18,039 nucleotides of DNA from a virus (IMGVR_UViG_2693429706_000001), one strand, 5' to 3'; positions 11,681 through 16,124 are shown, counted from the stretch's first letter. Notes: a model not told the origin generated them from the letters alone. Translations and numbers: made by a program.

Positions 11681-11892
11681 CAGAACCTCGCCAGCCGATA
11701 CCCGGGATGCCCCCGTCGTCGTGTAATCAGAGCCGCAAGGCGGCGCTCCCACTCCTGCCGTCCCTGCCGGATCTCAGATAAGTTTTCCATGGTCATCTGC
11801 TGACCATTAAAGGTGACGGATTTTCCGTCCAGCACCGCCATTTCAGCTTCCGTATAACGCTGAATCATGGCTTCGATATCATTCTGGTTCAT
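11680..11892 (-). CDS. head-tail joining protein (lambda gpW-like)
   Basis: About 70 aa, MNQNDIEAMIQRYTEAEMAVLDGKSVTFNGQQMTMENLSEIRQGR...RRRGHPGY resembles lambda gpW (..[32 protein letters not shown]...RRRGPAGF); the ATG overlaps the terL stop (ATGA) and GGAGG is upstream. Confidence 0.75.
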   Translation of the reverse strand: MNQNDIEAMIQRYTEAEMAVLDGKSVTFNGQQMTMENLSEIRQGRQEWERRLAALITRRRGHPGYRLARF

Positions 11893-13988
11893 AACCATCC
11901 TCCGGAAGTCAGCCAGGGGTTAACATCGTCAGTTACTGTTTTCTTCCGTTTTTGTTTTTTAACAGGCGTGGATACCGGTTCCGGTGAGGATGACGGTTCG
12001 GTACTGTCCGGGACACACTCCAGCCAGGTTTCCCGGCTCGCCCACTCCGGTGCATCCGGCCAGCGGATCTTTTCGTATCCATGCAGAATGACCAGAGCCT
12101 CGGCATACACCATCAGGTCAAAAGCTTCGTTGGCACCGCGACCCGGCTTACTCCATTTCCCGTCACTGCTCCGCTCTTCATACGTCAGTTCGTCGTAAAA
12201 CCAGCTCCCCAGCCAGTCAGGGAAATGCACATAGCCGGGACCTGGCGAGTCACGCCATAACGCGTTATTCACCCGGTCTTTCAGTGCATCCGTCTGAAGA
12301 AGCCAGAGCGGCACATCACCTGCGGCCTGCGCCCGTCGGCCCGTTCGTCCGGTGTTATCAGGGAATGTACGGGTGATCAGTTTTGCGCGCCGGATGCTGT
12401 CGCCCTTAAACAGGTAAATACGTTTACCAAGGCCATCACGACGGCAACGACGCCAGAATTTATAGGCATTATCAGTGACCCCGTCTTCACCGCCGGAGTC
12501 CACCGCCATTGCCATCAGTCGCATTTGTTGAGAAGGATCGGAGGCCAGCGGCCAGCTTTTATGAAAAACATCCGTCAGCAGGACATCCCAGTCTTCCGGA
12601 TAGCTGGCCGGATCAATTCGCTGGCTCTCCCCGTCGCTGTCACCGCGCAATGACTGCGTGATGTTGTAACGATCAATAATCCAGCGTTCGCCACGGCTGC
12701 CATAGCCCGTTACCTGAACCACAAAACGGCGATGACGTCCCGCCTGCACATCCACTGTCGCCACAAGAAAATTAACGCCATCCGGCACACTGCGGGAAGG
12801 AACTGGCTCTGCCCGCTGCTCAAGCAGTTCACTTTTTCGTTGCTCCATGCTGGCGCGGGGAAGATAAGGTAATCCCCAGTCGGTGTTGATAACCGCCCTG
12901 AGTGTTTCTTCACTTCCTGTCGCTTCATACTCCTGTTCTGCAGTCAGTAATTTGTAAACCAGTTGCGCCCAGGTCTGATACGCAGCAGCTGGCCCTTCCA
13001 TCCAGAAACTGGCGATACGGGAGCGGCGCGGTTCACCGGAAACGTTGCCGTTACAATCAATGACCTGACCTTCACGCAACCAGACTCCTGCACTATTGAG
13101 CTCACGCTTTTTCTCCGCCGTGATAATGCCGCTGCAGTGCGGGCAAAGTAGATACGCCGCCTCACTGGCTTTAAAGGGATCCGGTTCATTACGGTAGCCG
13201 GTCATGGCATCCATGGCTGGCTGAAAATATTCACCGCAGTGCGGACATGGCCAGTACCAGCGGCGGCGGTCACCACGATTGTAAAGGGAAAGAATACCAG
13301 TCGTCGGTGGCGCTTCATGAGGCGACTTACGTCGCCATTTGCTGTCGCAGATGTCACGTCCCGGCGAGCTCTCCACCAGAGTCATCCCGGCGGACATAAA
13401 TGTGGTGGTACGTTTTGAGGCCAGGGAGAAACCATCACCCTCGCTGTCGATATTCTCCGGAAAACGGTCGTAATCGGTTAAGGCGACAAACCGGTAATCC
13501 GACGACGACATAATGTTGACCGAGGGCCAACCAATTTTAAGGAACGAGCCATCCCTGAACGTCTTATCATGGACATTATTGTCATTACGACGTGGACTCA
13601 TTCTTTTCTTTACCGCCGCACTGCTTCTGAACGTTCTGTCGAGGCGCTTTTTTGAATGCTCGCGGGCCTTATCTTCGGTCATCTGCACAACGAGCATGTC
13701 CGAAGGATCGCAAACGATGGTATAGACAATCCATCCATCGATCAGACCAATGGTCTTCCCTGTTCGCGCAGGACCAACAAAAATCACCGCATCGTATTCA
13801 CGCGATGCCAGGCAGTTCATGGGCTCAATGATGTAGGGTGTCAGTTCAGGATCCCATGGCACCGAGTTACCAGCCCCCTTGGGAACACGCATGAATTTTT
13901 TAACAGCCTCCGAAATCGGCATGCGACGTGGTGGGGAAAATCCTGCCGATATGTCCCTTCCCAAATTTCGGGCTGATGAAAAACCCAT
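11889..13988 (-). CDS. terminase large subunit (lambda gpA family)
   Basis: 699-aa ORF with a Walker-A-like VGPARTGKT motif and a CPHCGEYF zinc-binding motif (lambda gpA has CPHCGEEQY); GGAGG lies 4 nt upstream of ATG 13988. Confidence 0.92.
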   Translation of the reverse strand: MGFSSARNLGRDISAGFSPPRRMPISEAVKKFMRVPKGAGNSVPWDPELTPYIIEPMNCLASREYDAVIFVGPARTGKTIGLIDGWIVYTIVCDPSDMLVVQMTEDKAREHSKKRLDRTFRSSAAVKKRMSPRRNDNNVHDKTFRDGSFLKIGWPSVNIMSSSDYRFVALTDYDRFPENIDSEGDGFSLASKRTTTFMSAGMTLVESSPGRDICDSKWRRKSPHEAPPTTGILSLYNRGDRRRWYWPCPHCGEYFQPAMDAMTGYRNEPDPFKASEAAYLLCPHCSGIITAEKKRELNSAGVWLREGQVIDCNGNVSGEPRRSRIASFWMEGPAAAYQTWAQLVYKLLTAEQEYEATGSEETLRAVINTDWGLPYLPRASMEQRKSELLEQRAEPVPSRSVPDGVNFLVATVDVQAGRHRRFVVQVTGYGSRGERWIIDRYNITQSLRGDSDGESQRIDPASYPEDWDVLLTDVFHKSWPLASDPSQQMRLMAMAVDSGGEDGVTDNAYKFWRRCRRDGLGKRIYLFKGDSIRRAKLITRTFPDNTGRTGRRAQAAGDVPLWLLQTDALKDRVNNALWRDSPGPGYVHFPDWLGSWFYDELTYEERSSDGKWSKPGRGANEAFDLMVYAEALVILHGYEKIRWPDAPEWASRETWLECVPDSTEPSSSPEPVSTPVKKQKRKKTVTDDVNPWLTSGGWL

Positions 13989-13996
13989 TATTCCTC

Positions 13997-14524
13997 CTAG
14001 AGACTCTCTCCTTCCTCATCAGGAATTAATTCAGCAGCACAAGCCTCGTAGGATTTTTCCTGAAGAGTGTATCGCAGGTCATCAATGGCCTGCTGTACAA
14101 CGCCAACGGCCTGAGGAGTCAGGGCGCAATCGCGTTCAAGAACATCCGGAATTGTCTCCAGAACCTGGACGACAGCCTTTCTCATGGACGAATAGACGAT
14201 GACTACTTCATCAACGGGGATGAGTTTTCGCTGCTCCTTTTCCAGCTTGATCCTTTCATTTTCCGACTGGTACCAGTCCTTTCTCTCTTTCGGCTCCATA
14301 CGGGATGGATCATGAACAGAGTCTGCTGCCTCATGCTTCACACTAAACAGGGCAGGCCCGACATGCTGCAGGGCGTAAACGGGGTTCCCCCTGACAGTCG
14401 CAGCCACAGGAGTGTTGGCCGCGAGGAGCCGTTTTTTTACTGTGTCCCAGTGAAGCCCAAAGGCCTCGGCGATTTTAAAAACACTCCAGTAATAAGCATC
14501 ACCGATCCCGCTCACATTTGACAT
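13997..14524 (-). CDS. terminase small subunit
   Basis: About 175-aa ORF ending 9 nt before terL, so terS by position; not the lambda Nu1 sequence type. Start set at the second ATG (MSNVSGIG..., 14524) with GGAG 6 nt upstream. Confidence 0.7.
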   Translation of the reverse strand: MSNVSGIGDAYYWSVFKIAEAFGLHWDTVKKRLLAANTPVAATVRGNPVYALQHVGPALFSVKHEAADSVHDPSRMEPKERKDWYQSENERIKLEKEQRKLIPVDEVVIVYSSMRKAVVQVLETIPDVLERDCALTPQAVGVVQQAIDDLRYTLQEKSYEACAAELIPDEEGESL

Positions 14525-14811
14525 AAGCAACTCCATCTGGCAGGTGAAAATCAGGTTTATTTATATATTTCAATTAATTGCAAACTAGTCTAATGACAGG
14601 GAGAAAAAAATATTGTACAGCTGAAAAGAGAAATAACTTTTAATTATCAATAAATTACCAAACATGCTGCCGCCGCCATGGAAATGCAAAAACTAGCCTT
14701 TTTCCGCGACGCTCCCGCCCCGTGGCAGGGACCCCCACTGGGAGGACCCGACAGCCTGACAACCGTGACGAGCATCTGAAACAGAGCTTTACATAATGGC
14801 ATGGGGATAAT

Positions 14812-15003
14812 TCAGAAGGACATCACAGCATGCCCACACAAATTAGTGTGAGTGTCCTGTTTCTTACTACGCGCAGGACTGACGAGCATGAGGGGAAAAT
14901 ACGAGAACCGAAATGCCTTATCTTCAGAAATGCAGCCGGCATCCGAACTGGACGATATTGTAAATTCACCTAAATACGAGGCATTGCTGTAGTTGAATTG
15001 CAT
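14812..15003 (-). CDS. hypothetical 63-aa ORF (weak)
   Basis: ATG-initiated ORF with no recognisable Shine-Dalgarno and a low-complexity product; listed only because it lies in the cargo region. Confidence 0.2.
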   Translation of the reverse strand: MQFNYSNASYLGEFTISSSSDAGCISEDKAFRFSYFPLMLVSPARSKKQDTHTNLCGHAVMSF

Positions 15004-15086
15004 TGCTGTATTAGCCTGACAGTGACAGAATACGATATTGACTCTGTCACTTGTGAAATGGTCAGAATGGTTAGCAGTTATGGTGA

Positions 15087-15293
15087 TCAGTCAACCACCA
15101 GGGAATAATCCTTCGTATTCTTATCGTGCTTTACTAACGCGGCCTCAATTGCCCTGAATGCTTCCAGAGACACTTGATGTTCTATACATGCAATTACAAC
15201 ATCCGGGTAACCCATCGAAATGGTGCTATTAAGCATAGTTTTTACACGAACCTGCTCCTGGGAGGGGGCATCAGTGTATTGATCTTTATGCAT
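15087..15293 (-). CDS. hypothetical small protein (68 aa), uncharacterised moron
   Basis: ATG at 15293 preceded by GGAG with a 7-nt spacer; product [68 protein letters not shown]. Size and position upstream of terS recall the YbcW/YnfO-type small proteins of DLP12/Qin, but I cannot confirm this from memory. Confidence 0.45.
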
Positions 15294-15500
15294 TTTGTCG
15301 CTCCATGCGTTTGCTCTTCACTTACGGCTAAAAATATAACGTCAAATCACTCAGCATGAAAGAGTTAAAGATTCAGCGCGTTTCCCTTACATAATCTGTC
15401 GTTTGTATTCTCTTCAGGCATACCGGAAAGACTAGGTATTGTCACACAACCAATACCATCGACAATCGAGATTTATACCTATTCGGTAATGTTTAAATAT

Positions 15501-15523
15501 AACAAAACCCCGTAAAAACGAGG
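15501..15523 (-). terminator. possible intrinsic terminator downstream of the gns-like gene
   Basis: Minus-strand CCTCG-TTTTTA-CGGGG (5-bp stem with one G-U pair) followed by TTTTGTT, about 60 nt after the gns-like stop. Confidence 0.3.
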
Positions 15524-15586
15524 TTTATGGGTAATTTGTATTGTTGAATAGCATCTGATGAGAAATTGATGCTAATACTAAACAGA

Positions 15587-15760
15587 CTAGATTAAATCAA
15601 TCTTGATATCATAGCTTTCAAGACCAGTCATTTTTTCCCGTGCAGTAAACTGGATACTGGTAACTTCTTTCCCGGTCTTTTTCTTAAGCTCAATGATTTT
15701 TTTTGTTATATATTCAGAAATATCTGCTTCTGTTTTTGTTTTTAACTCTTCAATGTTCAT
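15587..15760 (-). CDS. GnsA/GnsB-family small protein (57 aa)
   Basis: MNIEELKTKTEADISEYITKKIIELKKKTGKEVTSIQFTAREKMTGLESYDIKIDLI is collinear with E. coli GnsA/GnsB (MNIEEL...TGKEV...FTAREKMTGLESYD.KI); start at the second ATG (15760), 4-5 nt after AAGAGGA. Confidence 0.85.
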   Translation of the reverse strand: MNIEELKTKTEADISEYITKKIIELKKKTGKEVTSIQFTAREKMTGLESYDIKIDLI

Positions 15761-15932
15761 CATTTCCTCTTTTAGTCTGTTATGACTTTCCTGGTACACA
15801 GTAGTGTCAATTATATGGAGCAAACGTATAAAAGATAAGATGAAACATCGCAATAATCAACATACGACGGTCTAAATTTCACACAAACAGATAAAGATGA
15901 TTATCATTTATTATCAATGCATTAGAATCAAA

Positions 15933-16124
15933 TCAATTCAAGAGTCTCATTGCTGCTTCCAGAATTTCTTCTGAAGTTACATGTCGATCCGCTGCTACAT
16001 AAATGACTTTATGATCTCCGGTCAGAGATGGAAACCCTGCAGCCATTACAGTGAGGTGTGTTGTTTCGCCATTTGGATATTCACGCATGATGGTGTTAAC
16101 TCCGGTCATCACTGGCACTACCAT
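15933..16124 (-). CDS. hypothetical small protein (63 aa) in the position occupied by ynfN in Qin
   Basis: ATG-initiated ORF MVVPVMTGVNTIMREYPNGETTHLTVMAAGFPSLTGDHKVIYVAADRHVTSEEILEAAMRLLN between the csp and gns-like genes; no family recognised by eye. Confidence 0.5.
   Translation of the reverse strand: MVVPVMTGVNTIMREYPNGETTHLTVMAAGFPSLTGDHKVIYVAADRHVTSEEILEAAMRLLN

Follow-up and report, generated by a model that had tools for sequence, protein, structure and literature searches.

A small gene assigned to the YbcW/lambda p79 family beside a predicted cos site in an Escherichia coli lambdoid prophage

Results

Layout of the segment between gnsB and terS

Analysis of an 18,039-nt viral sequence (IMGVR_UViG_2693429706_000001; the window hereafter denotes this whole stretch) indicates that its sparsely coding segment at positions 14812-15586 is very likely accessory DNA at the right-hand end of a lambdoid prophage. 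The content of the segment is ordinary and already catalogued. What a previous interpretation of the DNA, made from its letters alone (the sequence-only reading), had singled out as the least explained part of the window becomes four items: a member of a named protein family, a spurious open reading frame (ORF), a terminator, and non-coding DNA that runs toward cos.

The late operon of this E. coli lambdoid prophage occupies the minus strand across the window. Proceeding from high to low coordinates, lysozyme and Rz-like genes are followed by a cold-shock gene, a ydfK/ynfQ-like gene, ynfN and gnsB, after which come the segment studied here, the genes for a DUF1441 TerS and a GpA-type TerL, and then the portal, head and tail genes. 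The features to which we refer are listed below in coordinate order.

11889-13988, minus strand: terL, GpA-type, 699 aa
13997-14536, minus strand: terS, DUF1441 match (E 5e-43)
14709-14720, minus strand: cosN, predicted 12-nt cohesive end GGGCGGGAGCGT, placed from the termini of two phage records
14721-14941, no strand assigned: non-coding right end of the packaged chromosome, conserved in phages with the same terminase type
14743-14750, minus strand: cosQ-like core CGGGTCCT, from comparison with the lambda end and the PICI-like element L049
14812-15003, minus strand: 63-aa ORF, a chance ORF, broken in relatives
14942-15459, minus strand: 518-bp mosaic "ybcW cassette" (5′ region, ORF and 3′ region), from lambda and DLP12 homology
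15021-15051, no strand assigned: 9-bp inverted repeat AGTGACAGA-N13-TCTGTCACT, from a repeat search
15087-15293, minus strand: 68-aa gene of the YbcW/lambda lambdap79 family, the sole real gene of the segment, from the ORF list and homology
15294-15459, minus strand: 5′ region of the cassette, 166 nt (leader, possibly with a promoter), from alignment
15301-15304, minus strand: Shine-Dalgarno sequence GGAG, 7 nt before the ATG, read from the sequence
15460-15586, minus strand: gnsB 3′ UTR, Qin-type DNA, from K-12 Qin homology
15505-15526, minus strand: gnsB intrinsic terminator, a 9-pair stem and then a T-rich tail, from a terminator scan, identical in sequence in K-12 Qin
15587-15760, minus strand: gnsB, GnsAB_toxin match (E 2e-33)

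The flanking genes are as the sequence-only reading had them, terS being a DUF1441 gene and the gns-like gene a GnsAB_toxin match, and the low coding density that it had remarked upon over about 775 bp was borne out (207 of 775 nt). It had also counted two uncharacterised mini-ORFs. Both ORFs lie where it placed them, but only the 68-aa ORF is a gene, and one of known family; the pair reduces to a single gene because the 68-aa ORF is conserved and under selection and the 63-aa ORF is broken in relatives. The description of accessory, mosaic, moron-like DNA, bordered on one side by the lysis/cold-shock/gnsB block and on the other by the packaging genes, is supported by our analysis, but it does not extend to the left part of the segment, which is non-coding DNA flanking cos and not cargo.

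Of 5426 complete E. coli genomes, 3346 contain DNA that matches 14540-15900, and in 878 the match spans at least 80% of this interval. In the best-matching complete genome (NZ_AP027783.1; L001 5501-5985), the prophage carries IS1 and IS2 copies and is heavily degraded, its terS and terL having become truncated pseudogenes joined to fragments of tail genes, yet the 68-aa gene and gnsB are still intact.

Identity and coding status of the 68-aa ORF

The 68-aa protein is identical to a RefSeq entry annotated as "hypothetical protein" (WP_000548593.1), and an assembly collection lists precisely this protein in 37,923 of its blocks. Its residues 1-68 align with positions 1-68 of the 68 in the profile of PHROG 657 (phrog_657; E 4.6e-48), and it shares 79% amino-acid identity, without gaps, with both lambda lambdap79 (NP_597782.1) and YbcW of the K-12 prophage DLP12. 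These matches assign the protein to the already known YbcW/lambdap79/PHROG 657 family, and it is accordingly not the orphan cargo that it had been taken for. The sequence-only reading had asked whether either peptide shows clear homology to characterised proteins; the 68-aa protein does so only in that it belongs to a named family. No match was obtained for it in Pfam, NCBIfam, PADLOC or the sequences of the PDB, and when all small ORFs of the segment were compared with Pfam, NCBIfam and PADLOC, none scored above threshold, the sole hit being a sub-threshold match to XFP_C. The further suggestion that a toxin-like small protein might reside here finds no indication in the 68-aa protein.

Several observations indicate that this ORF is a real gene under selection. 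In an alignment of the window with Tritos, PhiR63_1, lambda and DLP12, the sequence GGAGCGACAAAATG at the Shine-Dalgarno position and the start codon are both invariant, in agreement with the good ribosome-binding site that had been noted for this ORF. Comparison with six relatives reveals no gap within the ORF and gaps in both of its flanks; relative to lambda alone there are nine upstream, three downstream and none within. Codons 17-68 exhibit dN/dS values of 0.13-0.17, as expected of purifying selection, and the intact gene occurs in the functional phages HannyBb, Tritos, PhiR63_1 and lambda. Codons 1-16 (15246-15293) behave differently, with dN/dS values of 0.4-1.3 that derive from small counts (10 non-synonymous and two synonymous changes relative to lambda). 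At the level of protein, 14 of the 68 residues differ from lambda p79, ten of them among the first 15 and four within the core spanning residues 17-68. One homologue, P0003, is an intragenic recombinant that combines the window-type N-terminus with a lambda-type C-terminus.

A model of the protein generated with AF2 contains three helices (pLDDT 78.6, from an underlying alignment of only eight sequences), and a Foldseek search with this model against the PDB and BFVD returned no match at E < 1. The modeled protein is a small, conserved bundle of three helices, preceded by an N-terminal tail that is probably disordered as well as fast-evolving. The predicted fold is too generic to point to a partner. 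We also considered kinship with Rpp, the "redirecting phage packaging" protein of PICIs, which is 144-153 aa in length and is described as having an N-terminal winged helix-turn-helix resembling the DNA-binding domain of lambda TerS, followed by a C-terminal coiled-coil dimerisation helix. This candidate was rejected: the window protein has 68 aa and three predicted helices with no beta-hairpin wing, and it yielded neither a PDB sequence hit nor a significant Foldseek hit in the PDB, though Rpp crystal structures have been reported.

The 63-aa ORF and other small ORFs

The ORF at 14812-15003 is not a gene. Its ATG is replaced by CTG in L012, a stretch of 97%-identical DNA, and its frame is broken by stop codons or 1-nt indels in PhiR63_1, Tritos, L013, lambda and DLP12. 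The ORF straddles a mosaic junction (14941/14942), has no Pfam or NCBIfam hit, is unannotated by RefSeq, and is left uncalled by gene callers in all ten near-identical contigs. With its start lost in one relative and its frame in five, we regard this ORF, which had been called doubtful, as a chance ORF.

On both strands, all the remaining small ORFs from 14721 to 15086 are likewise broken in relatives. One of these, the plus-strand ORF at 14852-14992, was examined as a possible remnant of ylcI/ynfO and rejected, its frame being broken in Tritos, L013 and PhiR63_1; a tblastn search of the window with YlcI and YnfO (DUF3950), whose genes take up this place in DLP12 and Qin, gave no match in this region. 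The same ORF does have a partial hit to phrog_4035 (24 residues, E 3e-9), which is best explained by ORFs having been called on the same conserved non-coding DNA in other phages.

A mosaic cassette joined to Qin-type DNA

The 68-aa gene resides within a 518-bp block. Alignment of this block with lambda (47579-48090) gives 80.6% identity and with the ybcW region of DLP12 80.8%, and the two alignments share their end points. Divided by segment, identity to lambda is 74% upstream of the ORF, 88% within it and 81% downstream. Homology to K-12 Qin begins at about 15452 and continues through gnsB at 77% identity. The cassette and the Qin-type gnsB DNA are joined at a short microhomology located at about 15452-15459.

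This junction bears on how the gene is regulated. In lambda, DLP12 and Tritos, the DNA upstream of the gene continues into the intergenic region that separates ybcW from a divergently oriented ybcV-like gene, where a PdhR box and an FNR site (the latter at L010 2681-2704) are located. The copy in the window lacks the PdhR and FNR sites because the gnsB terminator replaces the upstream intergenic region, and its expression in a lysogen may therefore differ; more generally, lysogen regulation probably differs between the upstream arrangements of the cassette. Regulation of the window copy by the FNR and PdhR sites of DLP12 was rejected, these sites lying outside the shared block.

The approximately 290 nt at 15294-15586 had been described as free of ORFs, which is correct for ORFs longer than 26 aa save for the tail of an antisense 61-aa ORF. 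This stretch had further been regarded as unexplained, and it is now accounted for by the 5′ region of the cassette and the gnsB 3′ UTR with its terminator. Scanning it for promoters and terminators, as the sequence-only reading had advised, recovered the terminator at 15505-15526; promoter-like hits number three overall, below a shuffled expectation of 4.6, and the consensus scan found no minus-strand sigma-70-like promoter in 15294-15459.

The chromosome end and cos

Downstream of the cassette gene, some 370 bp of non-coding DNA extend as far as cosQ and cosN, immediately ahead of terS. The record of Tritos is 90-95% identical to the window over 14721-14941 and stops at window position 14721 (...CTGCCACG), and the record of phage cdtI begins at window position 14720 (GGGCGGGAGCGTCGCGG...). 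We place cosN at 14709-14720 because one record starts, and the other ends, at these adjacent nucleotides. The lambda record likewise ends in ...TTACG, and the left end of lambda presumably begins GGGCGGCGACCT. In mEp460 and Ayreon, which have the same terminase type and no 68-aa gene, the DNA corresponding to 14678-14909 is approximately 80% identical.

The cosQ-like core CGGGTCCT starts 30 nt before the predicted nick, one nucleotide closer than the CGGGTCCT of lambda, as judged from the last 32 nt of the lambda chromosome (ACGGGTCCTTTCC...ACG). Conservation of cosQ and cosN has been described in a review. These assignments place cos for a very common type of E. coli prophage.

Protein-coding annotations extend across or beside this site in several phage records (L007 134-382, L005 127-411 and L003 582-981), among them mEp460_059, three short ORFs of HannyBb and a "putative late gene regulator" of Ayreon. 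With cos at this place and the ORFs not conserved, these annotations look over-called.

A narrow family with a fixed position

An exhaustive search of 1.84 billion representative proteins returned 122 clusters for the 68-aa family, nearly all of which are frameshifted or error-laden copies of lambda p79 that stem from lambda control DNA. Genuine divergence is seen in just two of the clusters, P0146 (56% identity) and P0208 (39%). A second profile search was dominated by 3.5-kb contigs of lambda control DNA and added no diversity, and a scan of genome contigs from species representatives found 36 loci, most of them lambda contamination in unrelated taxa, the real hosts being Escherichia. On the basis of these searches, the family is very narrow.

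Most of the homologues recorded in Pseudomonas, Streptomyces, Cohnella, a Veillonella MAG and others (L014-L046 and P0030-P0253) are lambda control DNA or error-laden long reads. The contaminant contigs are often about 3.5 kb long, and they inflate both the apparent size of the family and its taxonomic range.

The order gnsB, 68-aa ORF, DUF1441 terS and GpA-type terL is kept in all 11 contigs inspected. In these 11 E. coli contigs, in lambda, in Tritos and in the satellite-like L049, the YbcW/p79-like gene is the last gene before cos, as it is in every context examined. PhiR63_1 carries a cassette that is 93% identical and paired with a lambda-type Nu1, whereas in the window the cassette is paired with an unrelated DUF1441 TerS. 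That the last-before-cos position spans two unrelated types of TerS and also a satellite-like element is a modest new point.

The satellite-like element (L049/L050 1-5860) encodes the diverged homologue P0208, and its YbcW-like gene directly precedes a cosQ-like sequence and a Nu1 homologue. The gene order in L049 is DUF4222, DUF927 primase, PerC, a 68-aa ORF, capsid E-like, decoration D-like and the YbcW-like gene, followed by a GC-rich hairpin, the cosQ-like CACGGGTCCTTTC, a cosN-like sequence and the Nu1 homologue, with the cosQ-like and cosN-like sequences both within about 45-75 nt of the YbcW-like gene. The other diverged homologue, P0146, is found at the margin of an AlpA-type element (L047 1-5464) that has two DUF7828 zinc-ribbon genes.

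Expression and defence recognition of the lambda and DLP12 homologues

According to a 2026 preprint, lambdap79 had been lost by deletion, probably via recombination with Qin, from all seven lambda-vir phages that escaped the Vulcan NIR-NADase system, and co-expression of lambdap79 with Vulcan is toxic, such that lambda p79 triggers the Vulcan NADase defence. Because escapers delete the gene and co-expression is toxic, lambda p79 is taken to be made in infection, dispensable and sensed by a defence system; in accord with the deletions, lambda without lambdap79 still forms plaques. The proposal that moron DNA at this position may be tied to phage-defence biology is upheld in this respect by the lambda homologue.

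In a CRISPRi map, a dCas12a roadblock on lambdap79 reduced the efficiency of plating to about 1e-4, and the gene was scored "essential" though it is non-essential. The authors of that study ascribe false "essential" calls in general to roadblock polarity. The effect at lambdap79 fits the place of this gene in the late transcript upstream of Nu1/A, an interpretation that is ours and not theirs. A literature search for ribosome-profiling evidence on the lambda p79 ORF found no paper that mentions it.

For ybcW of DLP12, published work documents FNR binding, PdhR-dependent expression (8.9-fold, activated), a 17-fold induction by Hha, and an up-regulation of more than 1000-fold on overexpression of T4 MotB. 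The DLP12 gene is transcribed from the prophage under the host regulators PdhR (about 9-fold activation) and Hha.

By analogy with lambda, the 68-aa protein of the window would be made during lytic growth on a Q-antiterminated late transcript, which would read through the gnsB terminator. It would likewise be dispensable for plaque formation, and it may constitute the viral signal that switches on abortive infection by the Vulcan NADase. Recognition of the window allele by Vulcan cannot be assumed, given that most of its differences from lambda p79 fall within the N-terminal tail. Natural alleles that differ mostly in this tail represent ready-made reagents for mapping Vulcan recognition.

Discussion

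What the 68-aa protein might do can be addressed only tentatively. Our preferred reading, which we regard as possible and still somewhat more apt to be wrong than right, is that it is a late, non-essential accessory factor that binds a host protein in a host-modulating or counter-defence role, and is not a virion or enzymatic component. We favor a factor directed at the host or its defences because a defence sensor recognises lambda p79 and because the tail evolves fast. A more elaborate version, which we consider unlikely, holds that YbcW/p79-like proteins are encoded by a positionally fixed gene last before cos, that their core binds a host or defence target, and that their tail is engaged in an arms race with sensors such as Vulcan. 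On that account a counter-defence or host-takeover factor would have been turned into a defence trigger, and the account would cover phages with two TerS types as well as PICI-like satellites. The end of the lambda chromosome that carries the cos-adjacent last gene is the end that leaves the capsid first, and placement on this end might matter for YbcW/p79-like genes.

The position of the gene could instead reflect a role in packaging, with the protein working as an accessory at cos or in its vicinity, for example as an aid to the terminase or to the termination of packaging. The last-before-cos location in lambda, Tritos, the window prophage and L049 is in line with such a role, as is the close spacing of the gene, the cosQ-like and cosN-like sequences and the Nu1 homologue in L049, but several observations render it decidedly improbable. 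Nearly the same cassette is found beside Nu1 in PhiR63_1 and beside an unrelated DUF1441 TerS here, and a TerS-specific partner is therefore unlikely; moreover, lambda forms plaques without the gene, mEp460 and Ayreon share the cos region and have no such gene, and the predicted model contains no DNA-binding fold. The neighbor on the other side invites the thought that the protein is a partner, either antitoxin or toxin, of GnsB, whose gene adjoins the 68-aa gene on the same strand and whose family is labeled a toxin by RefSeq and Pfam ("addiction module toxin"). We find this barely credible, as the two genes belong to separate mosaic modules that meet at about 15459 with a terminator between them, lambda and DLP12 have the 68-aa gene with no gns nearby, K-12 Qin has gnsB without the 68-aa gene, and neither PADLOC nor Pfam yielded a toxin-antitoxin hit.

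Other explanations give no part to a functional protein. If the non-coding DNA at 15294-15586 or 14942-15086 encoded a small regulatory RNA, as the sequence-only reading had envisaged, that RNA could be the real function of this low-coding stretch. Suggestive in this regard is the inverted repeat at 15021-15051, which lies 36 nt after the stop codon of the 68-aa gene, is perfect, lacks a T-run, and has a stem that is invariant and a loop that varies among six sequences ranging from lambda to the window; the repeat could serve as a hairpin that stabilises RNA or as a site bound by protein, and its invariant stem shows no covariation. The 3′ flank is conserved at 81-90%; a weak promoter-like site lies on the plus strand at 15439-15466, and a bidirectional hairpin occupies 15505-15531. 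Nonetheless, we judge a regulatory RNA to be highly improbable: Rfam covariance models gave no match at E ≤ 1 on either strand of 14400-16000, and the flanks are 74-81% identical to lambda, compared with approximately 79% expected of neutral DNA as estimated from synonymous sites of the ORF (9 of 43.2 changed). Furthermore, RNAalifold gives an unfavorable covariation term (+1.06) and just one compensatory pair, the flank folds with a z-score of only −1.86, and promoter-like hits fall short of the number found in shuffled DNA. The narrower idea that the 3′ flank is a constrained RNA was not supported either, its conservation being at the neutral level, its fold weak and covariation absent. A final alternative, that the whole segment is decaying junk in which the 68-aa ORF no longer functions, draws on the low coding density, on the degraded state of many host prophages of this type (as in L001, with its truncated terS and terL and its IS elements) and on the loss of the upstream PdhR and FNR sites. 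It is very remote, given that purifying selection acts on an ORF that is intact and free of gaps, that functional phages (HannyBb, Tritos, PhiR63_1 and lambda) carry the gene, and that expression of the lambda homologue is sufficient to set off a defence system.

For the preferred reading of a host- or defence-directed accessory factor, the modest lead that remains is the combination of a conserved cos-adjacent position, the satellite-like element included, with a variable N-terminal tail.

Among known systems, the classical lambda morons bor and lom provide the most general comparison. They are small, dispensable, mosaic and variably present genes in or beside the late operon, and they encode envelope proteins expressed from the prophage; bor, whose annotation is found in the lambda record, resembles the 68-aa gene as a small accessory gene at the late operon. 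Unlike bor and lom, the gene in the window lies on the late-operon strand, its product has no signal peptide or membrane segment, and it is not known to confer a phenotype on the host. The diverged relatives P0208 and P0146 (63-68 aa) share with the window protein the core motifs YPDVVxACI and S[LI]E[AT]FxAIEA, but they are only 39-56% identical to it and reside in satellite-like elements, not in full phages. YbcW of DLP12 (b0559) is a member of the same family, with the 79% identity and the 518-bp cassette described above. In DLP12, however, ybcW is transcribed divergently from ybcV, with FNR, PdhR and Hha binding or regulating, and a convergent ylcI (DUF3950) lies between ybcW and nohD, whereas the window has no remnant of ylcI or ynfO. 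Lambda lambdap79 (47738-47944) is similar in its length of 68 aa, its Shine-Dalgarno sequence, the boundaries of its cassette, its orientation with the late operon and its location last before cos. Its upstream neighbor in lambda is a divergent ybcV-like gene with PdhR and FNR sites between the two, in contrast to gnsB and its terminator in the window; downstream, the terminase genes of lambda are Nu1 and A, whereas those of the window encode a DUF1441 TerS and the 699-aa GpA-type TerL.
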